Below, piece after piece: positions 1,719 to 58,760 of a stretch of DNA of 64,000 nucleotides. Source of the DNA: Cyanidioschyzon merolae (lineage: Eukaryota). The notes below the pieces were generated by a model. That model had not been told where the DNA came from. It did not search any database and saw only the letters and a list, made by a program, of their open reading frames with translations. The translations under genes and the position numbers were made by a program. Location of the stretch: the NCBI GenBank assembly GCA_000091205.1, contig AP006496.2, one strand, 5' to 3'. How positions within the stretch are numbered: position 1 is the first letter of the stretch; every line of letters begins with the position of its first letter.

Positions 1719-3167
1719 TCAAGTTTGGCGTTGGCGTCGGACCCATGTCAATAGGTCCCGCTGGTTAATCAGTGGAAGTTGCGTAGAGGAACGGGAGGAG
1801 GTTTCAGGCAGCGCGGCATCACTGACGACTCGATAAAGCGCTCGTTTGGATCGAAAGTACTCGCGAAAATCGTTCAAATCCCAGTGCAGCTCGCGAACGG
1901 AGCGATTCGATACAACAGACCCTTTCGTTGCGCTCTGGTTTCCCGCGACTAGTAGGAAAAACAAATGGACTTGGTCACGGGCTTTGGCGTAGGTGTAGCC
2001 CATGTCGGAGCGACCATCGCGGTGTTGCTTCAAAAGTTGGACCAGAGCAGTGCGACGAGCTTGCGCGACGGCAGCCGGCTCGCGCTGTTGCTTTGTGATA
2101 AACGCAGGTTGGTTAGCGAACGACGACACCGATGCAACAGCAGACTGCCGCAGTCCAAAATGTGCACTCATCGATCGACACCAGTGTGGACGGGCAAGCG
2201 AATGCTGCGCATACGCATGATCCGCCAGTGCAGTTTCGTGGATCCAGTCATCCGGTGCGGCGGGGCTCGGGGCTTCTCGCGCGTCGCCGGCGCTATCCGC
2301 ACCACCGAGGAAACAACTTCGACAGACTGGGAAGCAGAGCGCGCGCTGCGCTGGACAGTCACGACAAGGTGGTGACGAGGTATCCGTCGCCATGGCGATG
2401 CACCATGCGTCCCAGATGTAGAAGAGGTCTGGCTCGCTCTGTCGAACGCCGCAGCAGTGACAAGGTTCGTGGTATCTCAACAAGCCGTCTTGGGCCAGCT
2501 TCGCTGGAGAGCGTCCAAGGCCAGCGCGGACCCGTGTTCCGCCGATCCGTGACCAGCTTCGCACCGTGTAGAGCGCCCGGCTGAGGGAGCATCCGAACAC
2601 TTGCGCGGCAAGTGTGGTCCAGAAACTGGACCATCGAGCATAGGGAAGCGTTTCGCAAGCCGCTGCACATGCGCCACGTTTCCCACAACTGCCTTGTCCG
2701 CGTTCCAGGACCTCTGCCCAGGTAGGATAGGCGCTCACCAGGGCGTACACGCTGCGCTGTGCCAGCCAGAGTCGCTCGGTTGCACGTCGACTTTCCACAG
2801 CGCTCGGAACTATACATTCAGACTGTGGGTGATTATCATCACAGTTAAAGCTATCGTCAACGTCAACGAACAGGTGGTAGAGAATGCGCAGCCGCAGTTC
2901 CACGGGCAACGTGGTGAAAGGGTCCTTCGCCGCAGTCTCGGGGGCAGCTTCTCCTGCAGCTGAGCGCTGCACCAGACTCCAACGCGGACGCCTTTTCGCA
3001 GACGATTCGAAAGGCACCTCAGCGCCATTGTTACTCGGTATTTCAATCAAATCTTGCAGAAGCAGATTCGTTCCACGTAGCTGGGGTAAGCGCCAGGGTA
3101 CGGTGCGCGACATGAGCGCTGCACAACTACCGCGTGCCTTCAAGTGCAGGAGTCGTACTGGGGACAA
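1719..3167 (-). CDS. hypothetical protein with a possible F-box-like motif (LPVELRLRILYHL)
   Basis: 482-codon ORF; the motif resembles the F-box consensus LPxE(I/L)xxxIxxxL; remainder Cys/Arg-rich and unrecognised. Confidence 0.4.
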   Translation of the reverse strand: MSPVRLLHLKARGSCAALMSRTVPWRLPQLRGTNLLLQDLIEIPSNNGAEVPFESSAKRRPRWSLVQRSAAGEAAPETAAKDPFTTLPVELRLRILYHLFVDVDDSFNCDDNHPQSECIVPSAVESRRATERLWLAQRSVYALVSAYPTWAEVLERGQGSCGKRGACAAACETLPYARWSSFWTTLAAQVFGCSLSRALYTVRSWSRIGGTRVRAGLGRSPAKLAQDGLLRYHEPCHCCGVRQSEPDLFYIWDAWCIAMATDTSSPPCRDCPAQRALCFPVCRSCFLGGADSAGDAREAPSPAAPDDWIHETALADHAYAQHSLARPHWCRSMSAHFGLRQSAVASVSSFANQPAFITKQQREPAAVAQARRTALVQLLKQHRDGRSDMGYTYAKARDQVHLFFLLVAGNQSATKGSVVSNRSVRELHWDLNDFREYFRSKRALYRVVSDAALPETSSRSSTQLPLINQRDLLTWVRRQRQT

Positions 3168-3199
3168 GGAAATGCGCGCCGGATCGACGCGCCGGCTGG

Positions 3200-3935
3200 C
3201 GCTGCGGTTGCGATTTCAAAAATGGATCGTGGGATTTTCCTCAGTTTCATAGAATATATACGTAAATATACATCGATGTTCAAGACTGACAGTGCTGCGG
3301 TTGCGATCTCAAAAATGGATCGATGGGATTTTCCTCAGTTTCATACAATATATACGTCCATATACATAGGTGTTCAAGACTGATAGTGCTGCGGTTGCGA
3401 TCTCAAAAATGGATCGATGGGATTTTCGTTCGTTTCATAGAATATGTACGTAAATATACATCGATGTTCAAGACTGACAGTGCTGCGGTTGCGATCTCAA
3501 AAATGGATCGATGGGATTTTCCTCAGTTTCATACAATATATACGTCCATATACATAGGTGTTCAAGACTGATAGTGCTGCGGTTGCGATCTCAAAAATGG
3601 ATCGATGGGATTTTCCTCAGTTTCATACAATATATACGTCCATATACATAGGTGTTCAAGACTGATAGTGCTGCGGTTGCGATCTCAAAAATGGATCGAT
3701 GGGATTTTCCTCAGTTTCATAGAATATATACGTCCATATACATAGGTGTTCAAGACTGATAGTGCTGCGGTTGCGATCTCAAAAATGGATCGATGGGATT
3801 TTCCTCAGTTTCATAGAATATATACGTCCATATACATATGTGTTCAAGACTGACAGTGCTGCGGTTGCGATCTCAGAAATAGACTGATAAGATTTTCCTC
3901 AGTTTCATAGAATATATACGTACATACGTCACGTA
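3200..3935. repeat. 94-bp tandem satellite, about 7.8 units in two alternating sub-variants
   Basis: unit gctgcggttgcgatctcaaaaatggatcgatgggattttcctcagtttcatacaatatatacgtccatatacataggtgttcaagactgatagt; unit starts at 3200, 3294, 3388, 3482, 3576, 3670, 3764, 3858; the last unit is degenerate. Confidence 0.9.
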
Positions 3936-5169: not shown

Positions 5170-5990
5170 AGGGCGTTCACGGGCGGCATTCGGCACCTGC
5201 AGGACCGCTTGAGGGCGCCAGAGTCTCCGAATCGACGAACCGATCATTGTGACCTGTGGATTTCAAGGTCTGACTCGGACCGATGGACGCACTCCCGGAT
5301 ACGGATAACCATTGGAACGCAGAGGATCCATGGTTCGTGGAAACGATCCTATAGTCTTTCACCTCATTGGTGTTCCATCTCCAGGTTGCTTGTCATCAAA
5401 TGCCGCTTCATTAGGTATACCAGAAGCTTTCAAAGTGCGTTCGTTTCCGAAAATACAAAATCCAAGGGATAGGTATGGAGATGCACGTCGGAGATCTTGG
5501 AGGACCGTCATCGCCGGGTGCCGGAGAAAAACACCGGGGGAAGATGCCTTCTCACTCACCATTGAGCGGAGAGGAGCAGCCAACGAGGAAGATGAAGGAG
5601 AAGCGGGGGAGAGATCGGCGAGAAAAAGAAGTTTATCGGACGGGACGATGACGAGTCTGTAATGACAATGAGGGTACGAGTTCTAGCAATGCTTCCACCT
5701 GTGCGTTCAACTATCGGCAATAAACGCATGAAGTTCGTGAACCTAGACTTTTACGCCGCCATCAGTATCAGGAGATGTGCAGAGCTGAACACGAGACCCG
5801 CGGAGCTGAGGCGATCCAACTTTCTGGGCCAGCTTTTGATGCTCGAACTGTGCAAGTAGAAATTGAGAGCGATAGCAGGGGGCCGGTCTAAAAACACTGG
5901 GAAACTCCTGTGAATAAGCATGAATTTAGACTGTATGATCTTGGGATATATTTCGTTTCGCGGGTCGTCACACACCGAAAATCATACTGC
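5170..5990 (+). mobile_element. family F1 TnpB/Fanzor-like relic, standalone copy L1
   Basis: ORFs 5312..5662 and 5662..5859 encode ...AFSLTIERR... and ...GNKRMKFVNLDFYAAISIRRCAEL.... These align with the module at the 3' end of the Tc1-like element (33658..34170: ...SALAIETNRERRE...GNKCIEFVNRDLNAAIHTRRCAAL) and with copies L3 and L4. The downstream non-coding tail (ggccggtctaaaaacactgg...) is shared. The 5' limit (about 5170) is inferred from a match between antisense ORFs 5177..5362 and 58647..59051. Confidence 0.5.
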
Positions 5991-10558: not shown

Positions 10559-11940
10559 CGCCAGCGTGCTAGGGCTTTTCCCATGATTGCATCCTTTTTT
10601 TCTCTGTGATCCTAGGCTGTAACGACACCTGTCTCTCCTGTCTCTGTTGCTCCGTCGTCACCAGTCGAAGGACATTATAGATACCAGCGTGCTCGGGCTT
10701 TTCCCATGATTGCATCCTTGTTTTCTCTGTGATCCTAGGCTGTAACGACACCTGTCTCTCCTGTCTCTATTGCTCCGTTGTCACCAGTCGAAGGATATTG
10801 ATAGCAGCATTCGAGTCCCAAGGACGCAGCTTCTGGTTAAGATCGACTCAGTTGGTACACGGGTAGCAATAGCAATCTATAGCTCGCTGGTTATTTTCAT
10901 TTTTTTCTTAGGGAGCCTCGGTGCGCCCTTCGCAGCGGTAACGCTCGACTGGTGTCAGGTGCTCCACAATGTCTAACACTGTTCCTCTTTCGAGGGTTGA
11001 CGCGTGCAGCGCGCAAGCTTGCTTCATCGCTCGATAAATGTCCTTGACCGATGGAGACGGCTTCTCTGCAGGCTCTCCTCTGTTTCCACGTCCAGAGTCG
11101 CGGCTTTTAGTAACGCTCTTGTTCTCGGTGATTCGTTCTGCGAGTGCGCTGTTCGCTGCAGGTACGAGCGCACGCTGTTCCATTCGATACAGGATTTGTG
11201 GAACGCGGTGTCGTCCATGATGAAACAAGTACGGGACAGAAAATCCGGTCTGGAGAACCTGTCCGGAGATTTCGATCTGTCTTTGTTCGCTTCATGCAAA
11301 GTCGTGAAGCACGCGCCACTGGAAGCGGTCTTGGCGAAGTCTAAAGTCCGAGTCCAAGGCCCTGTTGCATGCAAACAGGAGAGACGCGAATCTCTGAGAA
11401 CGTATTCCACGCGAGACATATCATGATGATGTCGGATTCCGTTTCATCGATCGGGAAAAAAGAGCCGGATTTGGCTCTCGAACGAAATCGATGACTTAAT
11501 GTGACAAATTCAGGACATATTTTCCATGAACTTATGAACCATTCGTCAAGAGATGACGCCGAGGTTTTTCCTCGCCAATTCAGGGGCACGAATCGCTGCA
11601 CCCATGAGTTGCCCTGAAACAGAAGAGATCAAAAACTCGGGGAGTGTGTGATCTGAGCATGCTAGACCGAAGGAAATAAGATGCGTGGATGTTCGTATGT
11701 ATGAACTTGGTAAATGATATCAATGATTTAACGAATTCATGTTCGAAGGCGCTGCGAGCCATCTTGTTTCCCGCTCCGCCACGACTTCCATCGGCGAGGA
11801 TTCGAAAGCGCCATCTGGAACGTGCAGCCGAGAATCTCAGAAATAGGTTCCCATGCGTACGCCCTTCTTGTTGCACTTCGAATACCAGGGTACCGCATTT
11901 ACGAAATAGTTCGAGAAAGAAGTCGAGTAGCAGCAACAGA
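10559..11940 (-). mobile_element. family F2 TnpB/Fanzor-like degenerate element, copy 1, about 1.4 kb with its 3' tail tandemly duplicated
   Basis: On the minus strand, ORFs 11580..11936, 11341..11601, 11024..11419 and 10908..11228 follow one another in shifting frames. They end in ...VLDIVEHLTPVERYRCEGRTEAP (zinc-ribbon remnant), and a third frame near 10785..10832 encodes DSNAAINILRLVTSEH (RuvC-III-like D-x-NAA-x-NIL). Each segment aligns with the corresponding segment of copies at 40990..42197, 49088..50290 and 55240..56445. A roughly 100-nt tail ending ...aagcccgagcacgctgg is shared. Confidence 0.55.
10560..10807. repeat. tandem duplication (2 x about 124 bp) of the F2 copy-1 3' end (last codons plus non-coding tail)
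   Basis: units 10560..10683 and 10684..10807 are about 93% identical; minus-strand ORF 10569..10751 reads ...SLQPRITEKTRMQSWEKP twice. Confidence 0.85.
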
Positions 11941-24668: not shown

Positions 24669-27600
24669 ACGCACAGCGACAGCGGCAACGCAGTATATGC
24701 GCTCCTTTTGATTGTGCAGCGTCTACGACACGAAGCTGATGATATGCGCAGTGTCGGGAATTCACCAGGACTAGTATCCGACGAGCAAGTCTTCACGCTA
24801 CGCGATAAGCGAACTGGCTTGGTGACGGATTGTCATGCACCAAGTCTCGCCGTGTTCGTCCTCGTGGCTCGGGTGAACGCTTCCACTTGAGCGGAATCAC
24901 TGGCAGAGCGACATACCGCATCTTGCTCGATGGAGACTGCGACGTGTGTCACGTTATTCGTTGGATACCCCGCAACAGCACTTTGATAATCGTCTACGTG
25001 ATACAACGAGTGACGGTACCGTGGGTATCGTCACTGCATTCCAGACGGAAGCGAGCGAGCAGGTTGCTTCAAATGCTGCGGCGTTCTCCAATCGCGTATC
25101 TGAACGCAGAATCGAAACCCACGCGAGAAAAACGCTCACACTGCAGACGTCTGGACGACCATGTGCTGCCACTCTCTCGTGCGCACAGGTATCTATCTGG
25201 ATATCATACAGTGCGCTCTTTCTCAGAGCAGGACTTGAAAACGAGTACATGCCATCGACCAGTGCAGTACTCCGTGCATTGCTTCGCTGCTCGTTCGCTG
25301 CTGGCAGTCTCGACGCCGGGGTGTACTTTTCGCGAAGCGTTGATGCCCCCAGTGCGCTGGAGAAACCGTTGTCGCACGTCGCTACGTTGCCGTCCTTAAA
25401 GGAATATCAATCGACACCATCTTGCGTTGCAGCACGACTGGGGTAGACTGGGTCCCATCGAATCATGGAACACCAGTACCGCCTCACATATGCACACGCG
25501 AAAGCGTTCTCTGCGTATGGCTACGGCGCCTCTGCCCGGCAGCGTTGCTGAAGTTACCGTAAGAGTGCCTCGCCTGCAGGCGAGGCACTCGATGCCCTCT
25601 CTCTCCCCCGGACCTGATCGTTTTCCATCGCGAGTCTGCAGCGTTCTAGCACAACGCGTAGACGGCGTACTCAACGGCTCGCTCTGACATTCGCCCGACA
25701 TACAAAGCCGCTGGACGCTCCCGATAGACATGGTATTTCCAAATGTCGATCGAGGCGTTCCAAGGTCGATGGAGAGAAAAACCCGTACACATCGTTTCTG
25801 ACGGAATCACAGTGTGTCAAGCCTCTTTCTGTCGATTGTGTTACCATGGGGCCTCCAGTAACCATGCCGTGCATCATCTCGAGCGTCCAGCACTGTATCA
25901 TTCCTTTGTTCTTTATCTCTTTCGCTGTGCGCCCTTGCTGGTAAGGTGCCCATGTCGTCATGAACGCATCCATGGGAATTGTGCAGAATCCATGCCTCAA
26001 TTTTGAGGTCCTCGTCGAGCGAGCAGGAGCCCAGCTGCTGCGCGCAACAGCAAGTCCAAGGTCACAGACTACCACGAAACGACACGAGGAGTCCACGTTT
26101 CCCTCTCCGTGTCATCGAAAATTTTGGGAATGCACACTTTTCGCCTCCGTAACACCGAAACTACTGGCGGCCGCAGCACAGATTCGCACACCCCCATGCC
26201 AAACACTGTCCGCATCATCTACTTGGATGCTCACGTACGCTTTCTGAATGAAGAGAGCAAAAGCATCCACTTCTGCTCGATACGATGCTGCGGGCGTCGA
26301 AATCATCCCTGATGCCGTCATTCGTGGTGCTGGCCTGCCCCCAGGCGTTTACGATGACTGAATTCGGATGATACTGTGCCCTGGAAGCGTTGAGCAGATT
26401 CATTTGCTTGTCTTTCAGGTCTTTGGCTGCGTCGTTTTGATGTAGAGGTGTGACGACAACCCCGACGCCCTTGAACGCAGCATCCATGCCGGCCAAGAAA
26501 GCATCCGCGTCAGCCATTCTGGACAGACAGACCCTAGTCTCAACGCTCGAATCTGGCCTCGATATCACAGACTGCCTGCAGGGTGAAACTTCGTCGGTGT
26601 CCATCGTCACTGAGCACCTGACTCCATTCCCTGGCTGCAAACTGGGAACCCTGAGCGAGCTCCGTGCGTCCTATTCGCGTGATTGTTCAAATGATCCATG
26701 CTTGCCCGCAGAGACCAGCCTCAACACACTGATGTTGCGGTATCGTTCCCAAGTGACTACGGTGATTTCATGGGCCTTGATCGGACACATGGGACAAGAT
26801 TGAATGGATCATTGAGAAGGCAAGCGAGCTCGCATTCGAGATGAGCGTCTGATCTAATCAGAAAAGCTCAGTCCAGGAATACGTAGTAGCTCGAGATGAA
26901 AGGAATGCAGCGAAGGCGTTTCAACAATCGTTTGGCTACGACATTTGTCGGTCCGAGGCAGGAAGCGCTGCCTTGGACGATCTGAGGTGACGCTCGAGTT
27001 TGTCGCGACATCGCTTCCGCCACTGTCAGCTGGCCATTTGACTCTATCGACACCCGAAAACTCCCGTCCACCAGTGTACCCTGTCTGGGCTGGAAACACG
27101 AGGCTACAACGCTCGCAGTGCGTGCCTCGGGAATCGCTCGACAGTAGCCCCAACTCGGTCGTCTTGGTCTCCTAGGCTGCTTTTATACTTGTTGTCATCT
27201 GCTTTGTAGAAGCGTTAGTCTCGGATATGGCATGGCGACGTCCCCAGGTATTCCGAGCAGCATGGGTGCAAATCTCTGATCCCATGATCAGGCCGTAGTG
27301 CATCTTCTGTTCCGAGCATCAGCTGTGCAGCTCCCTAAAGGTCTGAATGGAGACTTTCAGAGAAATTTGGACAGCTTGCAGCCCTGCAACTCAAACCTCT
27401 ATGAGCAGTTTCTCGATGAGGTGCGTCACAAAGACAGACGCTAGGCGAGACTTCCATGCGTACAAACTTACGCAACCTCTATTGGCGTCCTGCATCTCGC
27501 TTTTTCGAAGCATATCTCTGTCGAAGCGTTTTCGAAGCGACGAGCTGAAAGCGCTTTTCCGAGTGATCTATCCGCCCGCCCCGACAGCTGTTCCTTCCTG

Positions 27601-31984: not shown

Positions 31985-32221
31985 GCAGCTGGTACCACTG
32001 GTCTTGAAACGCGATGCGAAAGCTTGCGAAGAGCGTTAGACCTCAAAGCTCCACAGCCGCGAGCGGGTGCCGTTCAGTTCGTGCCGCGGCAAACCCCGAA
32101 GCCCGAGCCTCTTCTCTAGGTACACGTCTATCGTGCTCAGCTAAGAGCCGAAACAACCGCAAGGTGTTATCGGCGTATACGCGCTTCGAGTTCCGTCTGT
32201 ACCACTAGAGTCTGACAAGAA

Positions 32222-32560
32222 GATTCAACCACCGAAAATGTTTCGCGATCATGTGGAAAATTATTGCCCACCAGCAGGGGCGCCACAGTCTTTTTCGACC
32301 GGCCTACTGCTATCGGCTTGAGCTTCTCCTGCCACACCACGGGCATTAGAGGGTGTCCCACAAAGCTGGATCGCGTCAGCTCCTCGGTTCTTCTTCAGCA
32401 TCGCACATCGTCTGATATTGGTGGCGACGCGAAAGTCTCGGTTCACGATTTTCTCGCGTGCATGAACGCCGGTTGAGCTCATCAATGGAAGGATTCTTCG
32501 AACTCGTGCCCTCTGTGACACTCCAGTCTCGTCATCGACCGTCGGGGAAACAAATTTACT
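32222..32560 (-). mobile_element. family F1 TnpB/Fanzor-like relic, copy L3; the 5' limit is uncertain and may reach about 32780, abutting the Tc1-like element
   Basis: minus-strand ORF 32261..32521 MSQRARVRRILPLMSSTGVHAREKIVNRDFRVATNIRRCAMLKK aligns with QRARVRGLLALTSSTRGNKCIEFVNRDLNAAIHTRRCAALKK of the element copy. The tail (plus-strand reading cagtctttttcgaccggcctactgctatcggcttgagcttct) is shared with L4 and L1. Confidence 0.45.
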
Positions 32561-32782
32561 CGCCTATCATTAATCCTCTTCTTTTTCTTCGTCGTGTGCT
32601 CTTCTTCGCTCGATGGTTGGCGAGAAGAGGATTCTTTGATTCTTTCCCGGACACGTCGAAGAGGGTCCTCCAGGATCCCAAAATCCCATGTCCGTGCCTT
32701 GCTCTTCGATTTTTATCTTTGAAAATCGACGCATTTCGAACGCATCTGCTATGAATAGCGTAAAAGCATTTGATTCCGCTCC

Positions 32783-33664
32783 GATGCAGTGCGGAGCAGG
32801 CGATCGACATCACGATGCCATGTACCGTGTAGATCGTAGACGAGTTGAATGCAGGGTATGTGTTTGGTACGGAGCAGAGCAAGGAGGAGTGCATTCGTCT
32901 TTCAGGTCAGTCATTTCACAGGATTCAGATGGTTGCGGAGCACTGAAAGATAGAGGTCCATGCGCTCTGTGCCTAAAATCGATATCCCCAATGCGCGTCT
33001 ACTGCCAATGGTAGAAAGCGACCCAATGATCACCTCACGGGAAGCAAAAGCGACGATGGTAGACGCCACGGGCGTCTCTGGTTCTCAACAGGATGCGCAT
33101 GCGGTCCTGGAAACGCTGGGATACACCCGCAAGAAACGAGTCCAGGTTCACGCACCGCTGTTTTCCACCGATATTGCCCCAAGAGCGTTCCTGGCACGTC
33201 GCGATCGGTATGAAGCACCGGGATGTCGGTTTGTTTTTCCAGTCGGTGAGACTTGCTTCGGACGAAACGATCCGAACATAAAAGCGTCTTCGCGGAGCGG
33301 CGCGCCCGTTATATGTATGATCGAACTCGAAGAGAACGACGACGTCATCGTCTTGTCTAGATGCAGTGGACTCGCGTTTGGCGGCCTCAGATTCGCAAGC
33401 AGAGAAGGCTCATACAAGAGTATGAACCACTTTGTCGAATCATTGAAGACTTTTCTTCTGACGCCTGGCGACGTCGTTCTATTCGACAACGTGTTCGTTT
33501 ACCGTTCCCGTTGTGATCGAGCATTTGCCGATTCTATCGGGGTAGCTCTGCTCTTCATTCCTCCGTACGCTGCGTCGTTCAGCCTCATCGATGCAGTGTC
33601 TTGTATCGTGAAACGTAATCATCGCTTCGCTGAGCGAATCGCTGACGCGTCTAGAACATGTTGA
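32783..33664 (+). pseudogene. Tc1-like DD34D transposase pseudogene: frameshift between the N-terminal HTH (frame of ORF 32688..33014) and the catalytic domain (ORF 32960..33664); first catalytic Asp replaced by Gly
   Basis: aligned by eye to C. elegans Tc1A. PMITSREAKATM...VSGSQQDAHAVLETLGYTRKKRVQVHAPLFSTDIAPRAFLARRD matches the second HTH. FPVGETCF sits where Tc1 has WSDESKF (D to G). LFDNVFVY matches QQDNDPKH (second D kept). Thirty-five residues later, IPPYAASFSLIDAV matches SPDLNPIE with D at the third position, i.e. mariner-like. Confidence 0.65.
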
Positions 33665-34178
33665 CATCCGAGCGCATGTCGTGTTTCTCGTGCGAGTCGC
33701 TCCTGCTCTGGGGAGTTCCTTACCTAGGGGCATACAGAAATGTGTTCATTCCAAAAAATCTACGGGATGAGCTTGGGTGCACACTTGACAAGGTCGAAAT
33801 GGAGACAGGCCAGCGGAGCGCTTTGGCGATAGAGACGAATAGAGAGAGGAGAGAGCGCCAAATAGTGCAGAGAGCGCGAGTTCGAGGACTCCTTGCATTG
33901 ACGAGTTCAACCAGAGGCAATAAATGCATCGAGTTCGTGAACCGAGACTTGAACGCCGCCATCCATACCAGAAGATGTGCAGCGTTGAAGAAGGGACCTA
34001 GGCACGTGACGCGAGCCAGTTTCACGTGGCAGCATCTCAGGGTCGAAATGCACCACGAGGAGTTGAATGCGGGAGCAGGGAACCAGCTGAAAAAAAAACA
34101 CTGGAAGATGTCTGCGGGTGGGTACGTATATTTACCCTCCATCGTTGTAAAACGTTTTTTGTTTCATTGAACACTCCA
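32783..34178 (+). mobile_element. Tc1/mariner-like DNA transposon, copy A, about 1.4 kb, carrying an F1 module (33660..34178) at its 3' end
   Basis: about 98-99% identical (by eye) to the inverted copy at 44416..45808 across the whole length, with unrelated flanks. Encodes a frameshifted Tc1-like transposase followed by the TnpB-like ORF 33658..34170. No clear TIRs or TA target-site duplication could be identified by eye. Confidence 0.75.
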
Positions 34179-34647
34179 TAGCGACGCGCAGCTTCACATG
34201 CTATGCACGTGTTCATGCTTCGAGTAAACTGGGACACCTTGCATGCGTCCTAGCGCCCTGACGCGGATTACCCTGTTTCACTCATTGCTCTCGGATTCAA
34301 GAGATGCATGGCAAAGGTGGATCAAGCAATTTGTCCTCAAGCGACCATTGAAAACGTGTCCGCGAACAGCGTTCCAGCCGCCAGAGGTCGGTGAACTTTC
34401 ACAAAAACCGCGTGAGCACCGAATCTTCTCGGTAAAGACTGTGAAGCTGGTGCTCGCACAGGATAACGGTTCCAGAGCCATGCCGCTCGCGAGCGCAGCA
34501 CCTCGCTGAACGAAACTACATGCCTCCTGAGCTCTGGTTCCAGAGACTGGTGTGTTGACCCGCTTCCTCCAAAGGCTCAGAGAAACTGATCAAACATCCA
34601 CACACACACACACACCGGACCAGAGAGCCGCGGTCAAGTTGCGTTAC

Positions 34648-34956
34648 CTACGGTAGCTCACGCGACACGTCCGCCGCTCCTCGTTCGCGTACGGCCCTTG
34701 TCGTGGCCTCCACAACGTACGGAGGCGGCGGGTAGAGCTTGCTGATCGTGGTCTGTCTTCGCACCATTTCTAGGTCTTTTTGGGCCTTCTCGAGAAGCTG
34801 ATCGATTCGTTGGGGGTCCTGCAGGTTGCGGTTCTCTCGAAAGCCGGCTTGAACGCGGCGCTTGGCGTACGCACGAACGTTGGTGTCTGCGAAACCTTCA
34901 CACGCACGTAGAAGCGCTCGGTAGAGCTGCAAAACTTGGAAGCGTGTCTCCGGCAT
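34648..34956 (-). CDS. LYRM4: LYR-motif protein ISD11 / LYRM4 (Fe-S cluster biogenesis desulfurase partner)
   Basis: VLQLYRALLRACEGFADTNVRAYAKRRVQAGFRENRNLQDPQRIDQLLEKAQKDLEMVRRQTTISKLY parallels ISD11 (VLSLYRAMLRESKHF...[47 protein letters not shown]). Confidence 0.75.
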   Translation of the reverse strand: MPETRFQVLQLYRALLRACEGFADTNVRAYAKRRVQAGFRENRNLQDPQRIDQLLEKAQKDLEMVRRQTTISKLYPPPPYVVEATTRAVRERGAADVSRELP

Positions 34957-35207
34957 AGTAACGCAGTTGCAGAAATTGAGAAACCCCTTTCCAAACGACG
35001 GAACACGCGCCTGATAAGAAACGTCGTCGTTTCGCCTGGTGCAAGCGCAGAACCCTCAAACGCTGAACGCGCTCCCACGCGACCAGCTCCGCAAGAGTAG
35101 TGGACGCTGGCCGCAGCTGGATCACTCCTCGACGTAACGAAACAAGTAGGCAACTCGAACGGCTCACTCACAAGGAGGTACCTCCCTGAGGAACTTGTGC
35201 GGGCATC
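34957..35207. promoter_or_regulatory. candidate bidirectional promoter between divergent ISD11 and PET117
   Basis: 251-bp interval between two divergently oriented small genes encoding mitochondrial assembly factors; inference from arrangement only. Confidence 0.3.
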
Positions 35208-35350
35208 TTGAAAGTACCAATGAAGGGAAAAGTAGCCTTGGCTATATCGCTCGGGTTTGCCGCCGGCATCATCCTTTTCGTGCACGAGCGCCAACGCAGT
35301 CAGACAGCGCGGATGCGTGCGGGCATTATCCGTGAACTTCGTCTGGAGGC

Positions 35351-35393
<43 letters not shown>

Positions 35394-35426
35394 CACTCTG
35401 CCGTTGACTCAAATCCGAAGCACTAG
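35208..35426 (+). CDS. PET117: cytochrome c oxidase assembly factor PET117 homologue with a Q12 tract
   Basis: 72 aa; MKVPMKGKVALAISLGFAAGIILFVHERQRSQTARMRAGIIRELRLEAEQ parallels human PET117 (SKVVLGLSVLLTAATVAGVHVKQQWDQQRLRDGVIRDIERQ); a (CAG)n repeat encodes the poly-Q. Confidence 0.65.
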
Positions 35427-36366
35427 TCGAAACCCTGACGATAGCGGACTTGCATGCTCTGTTCTGAGGTATTCGTGATGGAATCGATGAGGAACCGTCA
35501 TGCATACCTGCTTCATGAGGTTTCCACGCCCTCAGAGCATGGTGATGATGACGACACCTAGACCGTGTCCGGCTATTCAGTGGCGCTGGTAGCGTCCAGA
35601 CTGAACTAAATAAATACGTCCAAAGTTGACAAGATCAATGCATTTATTTGCATCGGATGCAATCGTTGCGAACAAACCACCGATGGTGGGCATTCCATGA
35701 CGCTGTCGTACGCGCTGTGCACACGCACAGCAGCAGGTTATTCGCGCGGAGGTCCTTAACCTCGCCTAGAATCCGTGGTGCTTCCGCTGAGCCCTCGTGG
35801 ACGAAGAACGCGCCGATGCAGGTTCCGGATTCTAGTAGAAGAATCCCTCCCGTCAGAGCGCTCTTCGCACAGGCGCGTGTAGTCATCGCCGACCGCTCGC
35901 TACTGCGCGATGTCTCTCCATGGGTAGCACCCTTGCCCACGATACCGACACGCGCCCAACTCGAGGTTCGCGCACCAGGCCGCGATCATTGCGCTAGGCC
36001 GGGGCACACATCGCGCGCAAGCGCGATGCTATCTGGGATCATTTCGCACCGGAGGCCCGGACACGGCACGCATCGATACAGAGGACACGAATCTGTCACG
36101 GACGCGTTGCACTGCAAGGACACGTGTCGGACGCAGCGTGCGCCACGTGACAATCGATACACCGAGTGGCCGCAACGCGCGCGCCGCACGTTTGGGGACG
36201 CAAGTTCCGCAGTTCCGCCGCGCTGTCCGCCAAAGCTTGGCCGCCATCGATCGCGCTCCAGTACGCAGCGGCGTGCGTTTCGAGTCTCTGCCGTTGTGCA
36301 CGGCGCGTAAGAGCGTTTGGTGCTTCGGGCTGCGTACGAACGGTGTATGACTCAAGTTTGAGGCCA

Positions 36367-37911
36367 ATGTTCAGCGTTCTCTCCAGGAACACGATGCACC
36401 TACCTGTTTTTGAAAATGCCCCAGGTGCTGGCCGGGCTCGTTTTCTGCGCAAGCGCCTGTACAAAGTGCGAAACGTTATTTGCACCCGTCGGTGGCCGCT
36501 ATGGCTTTGCTCGTTCCTGCTGATAGGTTTGGTATTTGTGCTGGCTCCTCGTGTCATTCGCTCGGGAGCGAGCCTATGGGAAGCCCCAAACCTGCTGCAC
36601 ACGACTGTTGGTTGCCCGTTTATGTTTCTCGAATCGAACTTGACGCTGACGCTGAATCAGAGTCTAAAGGCGCCAAACGTTTCCAAGACCATGTTCCTGG
36701 CCGCGATCGAGGTGCGTGAGCAGGATCAAGGATATATTGCCGGTATTTTTCGTGTTCGCCATCCGTTTGCGCCGCACCGTACTTACAATCCGAGCAAGGA
36801 CGATTGGGACATATCCATGGTGGCCAACTCGACGCTTGCAGCTGTGAATTTTACTGCTAATCGCCTGGACCAGATCCAGGGCGGCTCTGCGCGTCAGCTC
36901 AGGCTCGGTTCGGAGCAAATGCATGCTGTTTATTCATACGGGCCAGAGGATCCACGGATTATTCGCTGCGGCATGCGGACCTTGGCGCTTTTCCATCAGC
37001 CGGACATAAGGATGTTCGCACCAATGCACCAACGCTTCCAGTATATCTTGGATATTGAGCGCAATGAACTCTACTGGATCGATGAGCCGCGAGCGCTCAC
37101 GCATGCTGGGCGGGACTCACCTCTGGTTGACAAGAATTACGTTCCACTCTGCGTGAATGGGGACGATTTGTACATCGTCACGAGCTTTGAACCGCTGCGT
37201 GTGCTCGGGCCTTGCACATTGAGGAAAGATCAGGTCTTTGCGCAAGGAGTACACGCTATTGCACACAGGGCACACTGTCCCGAGGCATTCAACGCTTTCA
37301 ATTCGAGCAACACCTTCTTCAGAGATTCTCAAATATTTCGCGGCTCGACGCAGTTCGAAGAGATCATCCCGGGTCGTGCGTACGTGTCACTCGTCCACGC
37401 GCGTCGCTGTGGTATCTACGATCGATGCAGCTACCAGGCTGCAATTGCCGTGCTCGTTCATCTGAGCTCCAGAGAATGGAAAGCAGTTTATTATCCGTCG
37501 CTGCTGAAGCTCTATGTTCCAGGCGGGCGTGAGAAAGAGCGACCTCGCTCGGGACGCCGACGCGAACATCGCTGCTTATTAGAACAGAGTCGACATGCAC
37601 ATCAACCTTATCGGCTCCATGTGAACCTAGTAGAGAATCCCGTGTCCATTATTCGATTTGAGAAAGATGAAAGCGCGCTTGTCAGCCTGAATGTGAATGA
37701 TGAGGAAACGCTAATCGTGAGGGTACCCGAGCTGTATCGATACGCAAGCTCGCTCGCCAGATGCATCCTAGAGGAACGCGCCGAACCACTGCTTCCACGC
37801 ATCAGCACGCTGTGGAAATGCAGCAATGGCGCCGTCTATGCCACCCAGGAAAACGCTGTGAATTCTTGGCACAAAATAGATCCGAGCACGGTCGCTCGAT
37901 TTCAAGGCTAG
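36367..37911 (+). CDS. hypothetical type-II (signal-anchor) membrane protein; the ORF is open from 36166 but Met at 36367 precedes the hydrophobic anchor
   Basis: MFSVLSRNTMHLP...RRWPLWLCSFLLIGLVFVLAPRV, then about 480 aa of a Cys-containing lumenal domain; no family recognised. Confidence 0.45.
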   Translation: MFSVLSRNTMHLPVFENAPGAGRARFLRKRLYKVRNVICTRRWPLWLCSFLLIGLVFVLAPRVIRSGASLWEAPNLLHTTVGCPFMFLESNLTLTLNQSLKAPNVSKTMFLAAIEVREQDQGYIAGIFRVRHPFAPHRTYNPSKDDWDISMVANSTLAAVNFTANRLDQIQGGSARQLRLGSEQMHAVYSYGPEDPRIIRCGMRTLALFHQPDIRMFAPMHQRFQYILDIERNELYWIDEPRALTHAGRDSPLVDKNYVPLCVNGDDLYIVTSFEPLRVLGPCTLRKDQVFAQGVHAIAHRAHCPEAFNAFNSSNTFFRDSQIFRGSTQFEEIIPGRAYVSLVHARRCGIYDRCSYQAAIAVLVHLSSREWKAVYYPSLLKLYVPGGREKERPRSGRRREHRCLLEQSRHAHQPYRLHVNLVENPVSIIRFEKDESALVSLNVNDEETLIVRVPELYRYASSLARCILEERAEPLLPRISTLWKCSNGAVYATQENAVNSWHKIDPSTVARFQG

Positions 37912-38864
37912 ACCTGGCATCGACCGTAGTGATGTACACGCATCGAAAATCATCTTTGAGATGCTTCTGGAAGCTTTCACGCTTCCAGGGCGAAAGATTC
38001 CAGTCTGAGCACGTAGCGGTCACTCGGGAATTTCCCCGCACGCATCATGCATGCGATATGTTGCACGCATGCAGCCGAATCGGTGACGTGTCCTGGCGGA
38101 CTGGTAATGATAACGTGCGCGCTTCTGAGGCGAGTTTCGTAGAACACAAGCTTGGCGATTCTTCGACGAACATTTCCAACATGTACGGATTCGCTGACAC
38201 TGGCTGCTTGGCGAGCTGCAGCATAGCGTTCTGCACGCTTTCTCGTGTCCTGCCAGTGCATCGGTGGACGGCGGAACCGCACTGCAGCGCTCCCAGAGTG
38301 AGATACGCACTTGCCCCAGCTTCGATACCCTGATTGGGTGTATCGCTTGTTTGAGCGTGACAATGCTCGCGATTGAGCCTGATACGGCGGTTCTCCTTCT
38401 AGTCGCACACTTCAGGCTTTCGATCTGCACGCATGATCGGTAGAGCGGTGAAATGCTCCGGATATAAGTACCACGAACAGCAGTGCCATTAGCGCCCCAG
38501 CATTGTCTCTTACCGCATCAGAGCAGTGCTCCGGTGCCTGCAACCATTCGCTTTACATCACGAATAGAGGGATACGCGGACATCCATGCATCTCGTTTCG
38601 ACGAGCGCTTTCCTCCGAGGCACGCTTCAGAGTAATCCAAACGTCGTCGATTCGTTCGCTGGTCGAATATGGCTTGGTTGACGCGCACCCGCCCCGAGCT
38701 GACACGAACGACTTTTGACCCCGTCCCAGCGAGCGCATTGCCGTTTAGAGACTGTCGCAAGTTGACTAGGGCGAAGCGGTGTATCGGCCGCGTCACCGGC
38801 CACCACGGCAACGGCTGGCCTGGCGATAGCCGCTCGGCACCTGCTCCCGAGACTTCACTGGAGA

Positions 38865-40538
38865 TCAACTCGCAGCGGGAGCTGGATCATATGGAAACGA
38901 TCCGTACTCTGCATTCCAGCGCTCATAGGCACGAACTTCATCATCGCTGACGCTCCGCCGAACAACCGCTGCAGCCCGTTTAAAGTCGTCTTCGTGGATG
39001 GCTCGAACCTGCTCGACTGAGACGTTGGCGATATCAGCGCCGAGATCACGGACAGGACCAAGGGCTGCTTCTGCGCAGGCTGCATACACATCGCTTCCAG
39101 AGTAACCGTCCAGAAGGTCCACAATGCGCTCGAGTTCGGCTTCACCGAGCGCATGTTTCTGGTCGCGGAGTAGGCTCTGCAGCATGCCGCGTCGCGCTTG
39201 GCGATCCGGCAGCGGTATATAGAGTCGACGAGCCATGCGCCGACGCCATGCCTGGTCCAGCTCCTGAGGCCGATTGCTCGCTCCGATAACCAGGACTCGA
39301 TCATCGCGGTTGGTCGCTGCCCCGTCCATTTGCACCAGAAACTCCGTCTTGATACGACGTGAACTTTCCGCATCATTCTCGGAACGAGCGCTCAACATAG
39401 AATCCATCTCATCGATAAAAATGACGGAGGGTTGTAGAGCTCGCGCGACACCGAACAGCGCTCGCACCAGTTTTTCGCTTTCGCCTACCCATTTCGACAT
39501 GAGCGATGAGGCTGAAATGTTGAAGAAGCGAGCCCCAGAGAGCGAAGCAATCGCTCGACCGATCATCGTCTTGCCGGTGCCAGGTGGCCCGAAGAGCAAG
39601 ACGCCCCGTGGCGGACCCCGTATTCCTCGAAACAAGTCAGGGCGAACCATCGGCCAAACGACTGCTTCCATAACACAGCGTTTGGCATACTCTAGTCCAG
39701 CGATATCGTCCCAGTTGACGCCAGGCGACTGGTCGAGGATCTCTTGCATCACCGTCTCGACGAGGGCAGGCTCGACGTTCGGTACACTGGGCAGATTGGG
39801 GTCAGGTCGCTGGCCATCGGCAGCCGGTCCTTGTGATGACGGCTCTCGCGAACGCTTCGCACTCGGCGTCGGCTGGGCTGACTCCCCCAGCCTTCGCGGT
39901 ACGCTAAACCGACTGGGCGCCTTTTGGGCTGGCTGCTGCTCATCGAGCGCATTCCCGCTCGCGCTGCGGAACGCTGTTTTCTCGCTCGAGACTCGCTCAG
40001 GCGCAGTGCCCTTGGAGGCGACAGGTGCGTCTGTCGGGGTGCCAGCGTTGTCGCGGTGCCAGGTTCGCGCTCGCGTTTGGAGCGCTGCTGCAAACCCGTG
40101 TCGCAGTCTGGCGCTGGTGATCACCCCAGACTCTCCAGCACATCCATCGGTCCGGTCTTGCGTTGCCTCAACCGCGTTTGAAGGCAGCGAGAGCGCTTGC
40201 CATACACTGGCGTCGGACAGGAAAGCAACCAGCTCCGAGGTCGTCAGCACCTCAAGCCTCGTGCTCGATTCAGCGTCCGGCAATAGCGACCCGAGCAACG
40301 CCTCTACAAGACCAGTTGCGTGCCGAAGGACCGCTTGGCGACGTGCTCGTTCGCGTCTCGCAACTGCCCAGCAGGCGGCATCAGCGGGGAGGCGCTGAAG
40401 CGCCCAGCGCTCCAACTGCACGTGCTCTCCCTCAAGCTCCAGAAGCGCGCACTCCCAGACCTGTGGTTCGGTCACGGAGTCGGGTACGCTCTGCGGTTGC
40501 GATCGAGGCCAGGTTTCGCGCATGCGTCCTTGGTACAC
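38865..40538 (-). CDS. AAA ATPase of the meiotic clade (fidgetin-like / katanin p60 / spastin type)
   Basis: Walker A LLFGPPGTGKT, Walker B SVIFIDEMDS, second region of homology VLVIGASNRPQELD, and the clade-typical C-terminus YERWNAEYGS; long low-complexity N-terminal region. Confidence 0.85.
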   Translation of the reverse strand: MYQGRMRETWPRSQPQSVPDSVTEPQVWECALLELEGEHVQLERWALQRLPADAACWAVARRERARRQAVLRHATGLVEALLGSLLPDAESSTRLEVLTTSELVAFLSDASVWQALSLPSNAVEATQDRTDGCAGESGVITSARLRHGFAAALQTRARTWHRDNAGTPTDAPVASKGTAPERVSSEKTAFRSASGNALDEQQPAQKAPSRFSVPRRLGESAQPTPSAKRSREPSSQGPAADGQRPDPNLPSVPNVEPALVETVMQEILDQSPGVNWDDIAGLEYAKRCVMEAVVWPMVRPDLFRGIRGPPRGVLLFGPPGTGKTMIGRAIASLSGARFFNISASSLMSKWVGESEKLVRALFGVARALQPSVIFIDEMDSMLSARSENDAESSRRIKTEFLVQMDGAATNRDDRVLVIGASNRPQELDQAWRRRMARRLYIPLPDRQARRGMLQSLLRDQKHALGEAELERIVDLLDGYSGSDVYAACAEAALGPVRDLGADIANVSVEQVRAIHEDDFKRAAAVVRRSVSDDEVRAYERWNAEYGSFPYDPAPAAS

Positions 40539-40989
40539 GCCTCACCGGGGTGCTGCACCTGTCGCCCGCCAGGCCGCCCGGTGTCGAGCGCGACCGGGTT
40601 CGACGGTGTTTTCCGCGATCCAGTGTCTCGCAGTAGACAGTTCGAGAGAGACCAGTTCCGCACTCGGGTTTCAGGAGTGCAAGACCGCGGCACCAGCTGA
40701 CGGATCAGCCAGAAACCCGCCCAGCTATGGAGCGCGTCAAGCGTTCAGCGTTGCCTGCGGGCAGCTCCGAAGCGCGCGCTTCTTTGCGCGCGTACCGGGC
40801 GCGTTTCCCTTTCGGGCCGGGGCGGCGAACGTGCAAGGAATGTTTCGTAGACGAAGCTTGTTTTTTTCTTCTGAATGACAAGATACAGGTCATGAGAGAT
40901 CAACATAGACTATTGATTGCCTGCTTATGTTTCTGTATTTAGAATTTTTCCAGAGTTTTATGTAGATGTGCAGCCTCCAGGTTCAATGT

Positions 40990-44002: not shown

Positions 44003-44415
44003 TAGAACACATACGATCCGGACAGCGGTTCGATCTTGCTGTGAACTGCACAACTTTGTCGCTCCGAGTCGCAGCATCGGTGCGATCATGCCTACCTGTT
44101 CGTGCATGATCGGCGGCATAGGCAGGAATTGTGGTCTGCCTCGTCGCTGTGGAAGCGTTCGGGTCTCCCGTTTCGATCCGACGGGCTCGCCCTGCGTACC
44201 ACAACGCACTGATGATGGATACCTTGGAACGCGCGTGTCCCTAACTTGCCAGTTAGGAATCATCGGGCAAGTTCTGGATGTCAGGGCGTACCCATTGTGT
44301 TGTCGAGAGCAATGGAAGAAAGCGCAAGCGTTCATCGACGAGGACGCGATGAACGCCGCTGCTTGTCTAGATTCCCTTGATCACGGGCGCATCCATACGA
44401 TGCAAGTTTGATTCT

Positions 44416-45808
44416 TGAACATTTCAGTGAAACCGAAATGTTTTACAACGATGGAGGGTAAATATACGTACCCACCCGCAGACATCTTCCAGTGTTTTTT
44501 TTCAGCTGGTTCCCTGCTCCCGCATTCAACTCCTCGTGGTGCATTTCGACCCTGAGATGCTGCCCCGTGAAACTGGCTCGCGTCACGTGCCTAGGTCCCT
44601 TCTTCAACGCTGCACATCTTCTGGTATGGATGGCGGCGTTCAAGTCTCGGTTCACGAACTCGATGCATTTATTGCCTCTGGTTGAACTCGTCAATGCAAG
44701 GAGTCCTCGAACTCGCGCTCTCTGCACTATTTGGCGCTCTCTCCTCTCTCTGTTCGTCTCTATCGCCAAAGCGCTCCGCTGGCCTGTCTCCATTTCGACC
44801 TTGTCAAGTGTGCACCCAAGCTCATCCCGTAGATTTTTTGGAATGAACACATTTCTGTATGCCCCTAGGTAAGGAATTCCCCAGAGCAGGAGCGACTCGC
44901 ACGAGAAACACGACATGCGCTCGGATGTCAACATGTTCTAAACGCGTCAGCGATTCGCTCAGCGAAGCGATGATTACGTTTCACGGTACAAGACACTGCA
45001 TCGATGAGGCTGAACGACGCAGCGTACGGAGGAATGAAGAGCAGAGCTACCGCGATAGAATCGGCAAATGCTCGATCACAACGGGAACGGTAAACGAACA
45101 CGTTGTCGAACAGAACGACGTCGCCAGGCGTCAGAAGAAAAGTCTTCAATGATTCGACAAAGTGGTTCATACTCTTGTATGAGCCTTCTCTGCTTGCGAA
45201 TCTGAGGCCGCCAAACGCGAGTCCACTGCATCTAGACAAGACGATGACGTCGTCGTTCTCTTCGAGTTCGATCATACATATAACGGGCGCGCCGCTCCGC
45301 GAAGACGCTTTTATGTTCGGATCGTTTCGTCCGAAGCAAGTCTCACCGACTGGAAAAACAAACCGACATCCCGGTGCTTCATACCGATCGCGACGTGCCA
45401 GGAACGCTCTTGGGGCAATATCGGTGGAAAACAGCGGTGCGTGAACCTGGACTCGTTTCTTGCGGGTGTATCCCAGCGTTTCCAGGACCGCATGCGCATC
45501 CTGTTGAGAACCAGAGACGCCCGTGGCGTCTACCATCGTCGCTTTTGCTTCCCGTGAGGTGATCATTGGGTCGCTTTCTACCATTGGCAGTAGACGCGCA
45601 TTGGGGATATCGATTTTAGGCACAGAGCGCATGGACCTCTATCTTTCAGTGTTCCGCAACCATCTGAATCCTGTGAAATGACTGACATGAAAGACGAATG
45701 CACTCCTCCTTGCTCTGTTCCGTACCAAACCCATACCCTGCATTCAACTCGTCTACGATCTACACGGTACATGACATCGTGATGTCGATCGCCTGCTCCG
45801 CACTGCAT
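44416..45808 (-). mobile_element. Tc1/mariner-like DNA transposon, copy B, inverted relative to copy A; same pseudogenised transposase (ORFs 45578..46045 and 44928..45632) and F1 module (44416..44934)
   Basis: near-identity to 32783..34178 over its whole length; flanks differ, so these are independent insertions rather than a segmental duplication. Confidence 0.75.
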
Positions 45809-46543
45809 CGGCCCTGTGCAACAAAATTGAGTTGAAAGCCTGTCAAGGCACTCCGCGCAGCTCGTGATGCACGCATCAGGCCGGGACAGCGCATACATAC
45901 ATGCATGCATACATACATGCATGACACGAATATGCATGCATGCAACAAACATCACGATAAGGCGGTGAGCAATTCCATGCACTGGGGTAGCACGCTCTTT
46001 CTGCTGCAGAACACGTGTCCGCAAAAGATCTAGCACGATCCACACCGCTGTCTGTTGACTTGAATCGACAGCAGTTCAGCTTGCAGACAAGGATTTATCT
46101 TGTGCATCTTGTGAGGCCTGCGTGCAGGCGACCACTTACCATGGTCGCAACGAATCTCCAGCGAGGCGGTATTTGATCGAGCCGCTCCCGAGAATGCACC
46201 GGCCGGACGGTTGATTGAGTGCCCACAGGTTTCCGCTCAGAGAATCCAGTCGACGCGTTTCTGTTTCGGGAATCGTACAAACTAGTGCAAATCCTGGATG
46301 ACATGCCAACGCTCGCATTCGAACTGCTCTACATGCACAGCGCCCGCTCCATGAACGCTTGCCTCGTTGGCACCCCGCAACGTCTCTGGAGTTCTCCGCG
46401 TGCGCGTCCGCGCTGGCATTGATCATTCGACTGGGCGCGAAAGCGCCGTGCGCTGTCCAATCGTGCCAGCAATCTGCCTTCCAAAGCGTTACACCATTGA
46501 AAACAGATTCCGAGCACCGTGCATTCATGGTGACTTGTAGTTC

Positions 46544-58058: not shown

Positions 58059-58760
58059 CCGTCAGTGAAACAGCAAGGTTTCGCAGCTGTAGGGTAATTT
58101 AATACCCACTCGCAGACGCTTCTCAGTCTTTTTCGACCGGCCTACCGCTATTGGGTTCAGCTTCTGCTTGCACACGACGGGCACGACAGCGTGCGCCACA
58201 CAGTTGGACCGTGTGAGCTCCGCGGGGCTCGGCTTCGGCACTAGCCATCTTCTGATAATCATGGCGATGTTCAAGTCTCGGTTTACGAACTCCATGCGTT
58301 TCTTGAGGCTGGTTGATCTCACCAATGCATGTAGTCGTCTATTTCGCACCCTCTATGCCACTTCAGTCGCGTCAGCGTCCCGTCGGGTAAACACCTTTTC
58401 TCGCCTGTCTCTCCTCATCTTCGTGGTCACTAGCTCTTCTTCGCTTGATGGTCAGCGAGCAGAGGATTCTTTTTCGTTTTGTTTTGAGGCACCCGCTGAT
58501 CAGCGTCCCCCAGGATTCCCGACTTGCACATCGATACCTAGCCATCAAATTTTGGATTCCTTCAGATGAACGCACCTCGGGCGCGTCGTCTATAAACCGC
58601 GAAGAAGCATTTGAAGACATGCATCCACATATGAAATACCATTGAGGTGAAAGATGACAAGCTGGCGAGCGCACATCGACACGATCACCCGAGTCCATGC
58701 AGAGGCACAGCATGCGAATTTCGCGACCAGCATCATCTCCATATCTTATGCTGCTGCATC
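58059..58760 (-). mobile_element. family F1 TnpB/Fanzor-like relic, standalone copy L4
   Basis: minus-strand ORFs 58372..58713 (...IQNLMARYRCASRESWGTLISGCLKTKRKRILCSLTIKRRRASDHEDEERQ) and 58062..58349 (...KKRMEFVNRDLNIAMIIRRWLVPKPSPAELTRSN...KLNPIAVGRSKKT) align with L1 and with the element module. The tail ctgcgagtgggtattaaattaccctacagctgcgaaaccttgctgtttcactgacgg matches the copy-A tail ctgcgggtgggtacgtatatttaccctccatcgttgtaaaacgttttttgtttcattgaacac. Confidence 0.5.

Follow-up and report, generated by a model that had tools for sequence, protein, structure and literature searches.

Five internally deleted repeats in a Cyanidioschyzon merolae contig as probable relics of the Fanzor1-bearing CMe-1 transposon family

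Introduction

A stretch of 64,000 nucleotides of Cyanidioschyzon merolae DNA (GenBank assembly GCA_000091205.1, contig AP006496.2; hereafter the window) holds five short related repeats, raising the question of whether they are guide-RNA loci, small genes, or the debris of a transposon. An earlier note, made from the letters of the sequence, read them as an undescribed miniature of a TnpB/Fanzor-like module, with three copies standing alone and two embedded at the 3' end of a Tc1-like element, each encoding a degenerate peptide of about 170 aa followed by a noncoding tail after which a guide segment might begin. The novelty part of that reading is not borne out, as the parent, CMe-1A, was published in 2013 (Bao & Jurka, PMC3627910) and ORF-less "ghost" Fanzor loci were published in 2023 (Saito, PMC10432273). 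CMe-1A is one Fanzor1 family described in the C. merolae genome, with about 150 copies that are each ~80% identical to a 3169-bp consensus encoding a 734-aa Fanzor1; some copies still encode intact proteins, and its authors saw no terminal inverted repeats, could not determine duplications, and listed it as "classification unknown" (PMC3627910). The same study placed Fanzor1 genes inside Mariner elements (PUl-1, PUl-2, and PGv-1). The ghost loci are ~550 nt long, ORF-less, and multi-copy, keep their ends and the omega-RNA region, and act in trans (PMC10432273). We conclude that the five loci are very probably dead, nonautonomous deletion derivatives of the Fanzor1-bearing CMe-1 family.

Results

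Extent and Architecture of the Repeats

Five related copies, A to E (Table 1), were recovered by self-BLAST of the window and MAFFT alignment, and the peptides quoted for them in the earlier note are present. A, B, and C are mutually 68-73% identical over 380-550 bp (A 5355-5903 against C 58654-58120, 68%, E 5e-49; B 32255-32637 against C 58093-58472, 73%, E 5e-55), and each resembles the final ~230-300 bp of the repeat formed by D and E at 70-78% identity (E 1e-18 to 1e-21). D (32781-34171) and E (45811-44423) are 98.7% identical over 1391 bp in inverted orientation. Because E-values of 1e-18 to 1e-55 were obtained within 64 kb, chance and low complexity are excluded as the source of the repeat similarity. 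The left boundaries proposed before were too far out, since A begins at 5349 and not at 5170, and C at 58660 and not at 58760. Open reading frames of 170 aa were found only in D, where the frame spans 33658-34170, and in E; the frames of A, B, and C are broken into pieces of 58-113 aa. A and C stand free, but B adjoins D head to head.

Table 1. Positions and parts of CMe-1-related features in the window
Feature	Position	Strand	Composition and remarks	Peptide motif (position)	CMe-1A consensus -> window (blastn)	Ends
Copy A	5349..5964	+	Mini CMe-1 element; boundaries from end alignments of family copies; ATG remnant at 5475	VNLDFYAA (5737-5760)	852-963 -> 5416-5532; 2831-3075 -> 5661-5902	Left, CTATAG followed by TCTTTCACC...; tail ends GTTTCGCGGG
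Copy B	32225..~32780	-	Mini element; junction as in A and C	VNRDFRVA (32423-32446)	832-937 -> 32773-32664; 2840-3010 -> 32513-32348	Left-end ~35 bp missing
Copy C	58062..58660	-	Mini element; deletion junction common to A and B	VNRDLNIA (58263-58286)	827-969 -> 58619-58470; 2844-3084 -> 58347-58112	Right, ...GTTTCACTGA
Copy D	32781..34170	+	Transposase gene fused to Fanzor residues ~612-end, then tail; decayed transposase gene 32781-~33760 with 234-aa ORF 32960-33664; ELGCTL at 33769	VNRDLNAA (33937-33960)	2737-2972	Left-end 35 bp missing; TGA stop (34168-34170) is also the right end
Copy E	44424..45845	-	Architecture as D		2737-2972	Left end complete, TGACAG followed by GCTTTCAACTCAATTTTGTTGCAC (45845-45812)
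Sixth member	26251..27322	-	Heavily decayed CMe-1-like Fanzor body, residues ~125-509; tblastn with CMe-1 protein			

Mapping to the CMe-1A consensus, which was taken from the supplement of Bao & Jurka 2013, separated the copies into two architectures. In blastn, A, B, and C aligned with it in two blocks, ~827-969 and ~2831-3085, at 69-76% identity. In A, the left end is followed by the 5' UTR and ~50 initial Fanzor codons, a deletion, the last ~95 codons, and a degenerate tail. One internal deletion is common to A, B, and C, in which residue ~52 is joined to residue ~640 and the residues between (~53-640) are gone; the identical junction indicates a single deletion event that was followed by amplification. 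In D and E, a transposase segment of ~975 bp is joined to Fanzor residue ~612, and the last ~125 codons are kept. The retained Fanzor residues are thus ~1-52 and ~640-734 in A, B, and C and ~612-734 in D and E, so that RuvC-I, RuvC-II, and most of the zinc-finger region are missing from all five. The deletion of the RuvC core and zinc ribbon that had been suspected from the letters is therefore real: a complete split RuvC (D...E...D) and a zinc finger are absent, and the RuvC-III "NRD" block is the only one kept.

The point at which B(-) and D(+) meet lies inside a perfect palindrome, GCTCCG-ATGCAGTG-CGGAGC (32778-32797), and it is exactly there that both copies lack their left ends. At this position other copies also have a stem, with another sequence (CTGC/GCAG, GCTG/CAGC). 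These stems suggest a sub-terminal hairpin in the left end and a fold-back or recombination event at that point.

As an inverted repeat of 1.39 kb, D and E enclose 10.25 kb (34172-44422). In one metagenome contig (L084) this 10.25-kb segment is flipped with respect to its flanks, L084 1-3357 corresponding to window 47761-44423 and L084 1967-13766 to window 32781-44577; the flip reflects either a recombination inversion between the inverted repeats or an assembly ambiguity. Recent duplication or gene conversion is the best explanation for the 98.7% identity of D and E, against ~70% for other family members; gene conversion between the two would account for it.

Exact matches to annotated C. merolae 10D proteins on an 852,727-bp chromosome (BAM81237, BAM81241, BAM81250, and BAM81254) were obtained for four long ORFs of the window. 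The window region, copy A included, is also carried by metagenome contigs at ~99.3% identity. A search for empty insertion sites in related strains returned none, as the metagenome contigs, which are ~99% identical, contain the same insertions.

Fanzor1 Ancestry

A tblastn search with the CMe-1 protein matched A (E 9e-21), C (E 7e-14), D (E 6.5e-26), and E (E 9e-28), as well as B in two collinear pieces, and the collinear protein homology to the CMe-1 Fanzor1 spans 83-119 residues. The same search revealed the sixth family member (E 1.4e-7, with two collinear weaker segments), which is 23-29% identical to the query and has many stops. When the 170-aa ORF of D was compared with a profile of nine CMe-1 relatives by hhalign, the match had 99.1% probability (E 1.4e-18). 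The family profile in turn matched SpuFz1, the Spizellomyces Fanzor1 (8GKH; E 2e-5 over 355 residues, with the alignment ending at the NRD..N motif), and, more weakly, GtFz1, the Guillardia Fanzor1 (9CER; E 0.056). As the family profile matches solved Fanzor1 structures, the TnpB/Fanzor ancestry claimed for the C-terminal motif is supported by way of an intermediate family.

Direct profile searches gave nothing of the kind. The raw repeat peptides had no match in Pfam, NCBIfam, or PDB, and a PDB search with the ORF of D returned noise only. The full CMe-1 consensus protein itself found nothing significant in Pfam or PDB (Cas12f1-like_TNB, E 0.52 over 11 residues). The profile test suggested for the peptides thus succeeds through the CMe-1 family profile and fails with the peptides alone.

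A 752-aa Fanzor ORF (P0046 type) is present in a related strain. Two intact proteins of 43% identity, P0085 and P0086, were considered as the parent lineage of the tail and rejected, because their C-termini are less similar to the copies than is CMe-1. In many full-length copies of CMe-1A type, a unit of ~75 bp (consensus 2117-2196) is repeated in tandem two to five times within the Fanzor ORF (L004 5221-5376, L009, L024, L026, L090, L095, and L107), and the P0046 protein is lengthened by repeated ...KHEEKKEADPATQEVQ(D/E)ND... units immediately ahead of the RuvC-I region. Viral contigs from IMG/VR (L125-L130), which include the giant-virus MAG GVMAG-M-3300020163-17, also encode relatives of the CMe-1 Fanzor1, with 25-36% identity. 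Fanzor1 occurs in large DNA viruses, with which these viral relatives are consistent.

Transposase of Copies D and E

The raw ORF of D scores with DDE_3 at E 6e-4 and with IS630 at E 1e-4, and substitutions (D to G, E to D) mark the decay of its catalytic residues. The consensus derived from 14 distinct copies reached E 2e-21 with DDE_3 (76.8 bits, cut-off 28.6) and E 1.7e-33 with IS630 (116.3 bits, cut-off 100), restoring the D..D(34)E triad (VDET...LLLDN...(34 residues)...NPIE). N-terminal HTH_33 and HTH_Tnp_Tc3_2 domains were matched with weak scores, and the consensus could be aligned along its whole length with the PUl-1 Mariner transposase, from the Pythium Fanzor1 element of that name (25% identity, E 3e-11). 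With these scores above curated cut-offs the association with a Tc1-like element stands, and on sequence grounds the segment is a genuine remnant of an IS630/Tc1/mariner-type transposase gene. Terminal inverted repeats belonging to the transposase segment itself were sought, and none were found. Forms that lack the transposase, the published CMe-1A consensus included, keep ~10-15 nt (GAAGCGTTCA) matching its last codons; this short match suggests that they may have originated by deletion of the transposase gene.

Element Ends

All five copies end at GTTTCAYTGA, and D and E diverge directly after GTTTCAYTGA(A). The sharp 3' boundary noticed previously is borne out in 32 distinct family copies, in which the information content is at background immediately past ...YTGA. 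On the left, homology starts at TCTTTCAmCTCAaTTgTGTTCCAC, and the six bases before it have the consensus TTATAG, beyond which nothing is conserved among copies. This left end is present in E and absent in D. The motif TTATAG is conserved on the left flank only, with no right-side counterpart.

The left consensus (TTATAGTCTTTCAmCTCA...) does not match the reverse complement of the right end (TCAGTGAAAC...), and terminal inverted repeats are thus lacking. No TA or other target-site duplication was detected, the composition after ...YTGA being at background in the 32 copies. Given the lack of both inverted repeats and TA duplications, the DDE transposase may or may not ever have moved CMe-1 units.

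Relatives Outside the Window

A 16-mer taken from the RuvC-III codons was used to retrieve metagenome contigs and returned ~57 Cyanidioschyzon-like loci; this selection biases the census, and the high conservation of the RuvC-III block is partly a product of it. An nhmmer model of the tail then gave 78 hits, which reduce to 55 distinct copies drawn from the window and from metagenome contigs ~99% identical to it. Long copies, in which the Fanzor body is present, carry the CMe-1A tail in 19 cases and the window-type tail in four. Among the mini copies, 13 have the window-type tail and one has the CMe-1A tail. Seven copies combine a transposase with the mini form and end in the window-type tail. 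The remaining architecture, transposase plus C-terminus as in D and E, is represented by ten copies (six with the window-type tail, two with the CMe-1A tail, and two intermediate), and one further window-tail copy fits none of these classes. Within each class the deletion junctions are common to the members, and at least 20 distinct mini copies have one deletion junction in common and keep both ends.

Four window-tail copies (L109, L017, L088, and L070) continue upstream into the full Fanzor body. One of them, L070 (7523-11692), is the sole full-length composite found, with the left end, a transposase segment, the full Fanzor body, and the window-type tail. The parent that the earlier note proposed to look for thus exists in outline, but in decayed form: a TE-N2 insertion interrupts its body, it has no long ORF, and no intact element with both transposase and Fanzor was found.

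Tail, Structure, and Decay

The tail had been taken as noncoding. Its first ~45 nt (GGCCGGTC.AAAAAGACTGG...CTGC) are instead the CMe-1 codons for ...GGRSKKTGRRL..., and past CMe-1A consensus position ~3085 the tail is unlike CMe-1A. In the subfamily consensus the Fanzor frame stays open through the tail to a TGA that forms the last three bases of the element. The stop of CMe-1A lies 59 nt before the element end, and that of the window subfamily lies at the terminal ...CAYTGA.

Folding of the reconstructed 95-nt consensus tail gave three hairpins with a z-score of -3.83, which was matched by 1 of 200 shuffles. Four tails from the window fold no better than shuffles (z = -0.33, -1.58, -0.85, and +0.14), and RNAalifold applied to 28 tails returned no consensus structure. 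Covariation was examined with a manual model of four helices based on folds of single sequences; two of the helices change register between subgroups. Paired cells amounted to 70.9%, against 70.7% when partners were shuffled among sequences, and the covariation score of 0.202 (0.197 shuffled) was reached by 173 of 500 shuffles; sliding the helix partners lowers pairing to 37-46%. Pairing in the consensus that is not accompanied by covariation is a property of the ancestral sequence and is not maintained in the copies. Rfam gave no match, either across the whole window at the gathering threshold or within 32200-34250 at E <= 1. The proposal of a guide RNA at the tail thus receives no support from covariation or from folding of the window copies.

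Coding constraint is likewise not apparent. The copies differ from the consensus almost equally at the three codon positions (0.203, 0.211, and 0.228 for the first, second, and third), and a stop-free open frame was found in only 2 of 28 copies. The last 50 nt of the tail are the least conserved segment (66-69%, against 75-88% elsewhere). None of the repeat ORFs of the window is annotated, and the ORF of D is absent from a collection of 15 billion proteins.

Discussion

Origin of the Repeats

The ancestral unit would have consisted of a left end, an IS630/Tc1/mariner-type DDE transposase gene, a ~730-aa Fanzor1 gene, and a hairpin-rich right end finishing in ...GTTTCAYTGA. Given the condition of L070 and the lack of an intact composite, this unit is a reconstruction. 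Two internal deletions then probably produced short elements that retained both ends, and each form subsequently multiplied. In the mini form of ~600 bp (A, B, and C), the tail and ~95 codons from the end of the Fanzor gene remain, together with the left end, the 5' UTR, and ~50 codons from its start. In the form of ~1.4 kb (D and E), ~125 codons from the end of the Fanzor gene remain, preceded by the transposase gene and followed by the tail. On the model of TnpB and Fanzor elements, the omega-RNA scaffold of the parent would lie in the retained 3' part, and its guide would come from the flank past ...TGA. The window copies themselves are neutral relics, with their frames broken, the nuclease core gone, and the tail hairpins eroded.

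Alternative Explanations

If the mini elements were live ghost loci, the retained 5' region would drive a transcript consisting of the omega-RNA scaffold and a guide from the flank, which an intact CMe-1 Fanzor1 would use in trans for homing or copy maintenance. What the mini architecture preserves is precisely the 5' region together with the 3'-terminal ~340 bp, which run to the sharp right end. The reconstructed tail forms its three hairpins (z = -3.83), ghost loci act in trans in S. punctatus (PMC10432273), intact CMe-1A proteins have been reported (PMC3627910), and the related strain has its 752-aa ORF. We nevertheless regard this explanation as quite unlikely, because the window copies are 25-30% diverged from one another with tails that fold like shuffles, covariation and an Rfam match are absent, the tail is the least conserved segment, and 19 of 23 long copies have the CMe-1A tail, which makes a matching protein partner for the window tail doubtful. 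A broader version, which we consider unlikely, would make CMe-1 a Tc1/mariner-derived Fanzor1 transposon that no longer has inverted repeats or TA duplications and has come to spread by an IS605-like mode with asymmetric ends, TTATAG being the target or TAM, the end hairpins the recognition sites, and the minis ghost guide-RNA loci for a few intact Fanzors. If this were true, CMe-1 would be a eukaryotic element maintained by an RNA-guided nuclease and not by the linked DDE transposase.

The remaining explanations concern the peptide. A domesticated small protein, that is, a C-terminal Fanzor peptide of ~100-170 aa under selection, could be imagined from the 170-aa ORF of D and E and from the family consensus frame that is open to the terminal TGA. 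It is most improbable in view of the frameshifts and stops in A, B, and C, the almost equal divergence of the codon positions, the absence of the ORFs from the 15-billion-protein collection, and the nature of the fragment, which lacks RuvC-I/II and most of the zinc finger. The unit might also be the 3' terminus of a Tc1-like transposon with no TnpB ancestry, its RDxNAA peptide a chance match, as the failure of the raw peptides in Pfam, NCBIfam, and PDB would allow. We give that practically no credence: the homology to the CMe-1 Fanzor1 is collinear over 83-119 residues with E-values down to 9e-28 and an hhalign probability of 99.1%, same-tail copies (L109, L017, L088, and L070) extend into the full Fanzor body, and the family profile matches the SpuFz1 and GtFz1 structures. 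Decayed deletion derivatives of CMe-1 therefore remain our preferred explanation.

Comparison with Known Elements

CMe-1A belongs to the same genome as the copies and is 70-76% identical to them in nucleotide sequence at consensus positions ~785-1060 and ~2737/2823-3085 and 50-55% identical in amino acid sequence across the last 83-119 residues. It also shares the left-end motif (TATAG followed by TTTTTCAGTTCAATTGTGTTTCA), and neither has inverted repeats or a detectable duplication. It differs in that the window copies are internally deleted, that their last ~75 nt (terminal ~75-85 nt) are unrelated to CMe-1A 3085-3169, that they are without its 5' 635-bp TE-N2_CMe module, and that its consensus is without the IS630/Tc1/mariner-type transposase gene that D and E have. 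From these comparisons, the window copies and CMe-1A would best be called sister subfamilies of one family.

Like the ghost loci, the mini elements (~600 bp) are short, multi-copy, and ORF-less and keep both ends and the 3' region that would hold the omega RNA. The ghost Spu-1 loci, however, have 30-nt inverted repeats, are well conserved and expressed, and work with SpuFz1 (PMC10432273), whereas the window elements have no inverted repeats, still contain recognizable Fanzor codons, are 25-30% diverged, and show no sign of an RNA structure being maintained. PUl-1, PUl-2, and PGv-1 resemble the C. merolae units in carrying an upstream DDE transposase and a downstream Fanzor1 on the same strand in one unit, but they have terminal inverted repeats of 24-33 bp and TA duplications and the C. 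merolae units have neither. The asymmetric ends without inverted repeats or duplications, the short motif on the left only (here TTATAG), the hairpins near both ends, and the variable flank past the right end recall IS200/IS605 deletion derivatives (PATEs) and bacterial TnpB omega-RNA loci. This likeness is one of end layout only, as the C. merolae units have a eukaryotic host and a DDE-type transposase and no Y1 (HUH) transposase.

The repeats are accordingly ordinary. They are deletion derivatives, now eroded, of a transposon family in print since 2013 and are of a kind published in 2023, and they leave the understanding of how Fanzor works unchanged. For CMe-1, a family of "classification unknown", the variants with an IS630/Tc1/mariner-type transposase gene within the same ends are a modest addition, and the published CMe-1A consensus seems to retain a short remnant of that gene. 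Further modest additions are a second 3' terminus, which is found mostly on deletion derivatives, and the asymmetry of the family ends, with a six-base motif on the left flank only. The searchable literature (Repbase not covered) contained no account of transposase-bearing variants of CMe-1, of an alternative 3' terminus, or of the left-flank motif.

Other Repeats in the Window

Another dispersed repeat family (11141-11751, 49695-49994, and 55360-55985), possibly the other family mentioned by the earlier reader, has 66-70% identity between copies and is unrelated to the CMe-1A consensus. The DSNAAINILRLV motif at 10794-10817(-) was considered as a CMe-1 relative and rejected, as its match was not significant (tblastn E 6); it is part of a local tandem duplication (10561-10808). 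A 482-aa ORF is followed closely on its downstream side by a tandem array (3201-3926) of ~94-bp units in ~7.7 copies, with 87-95% identity between shifted copies.
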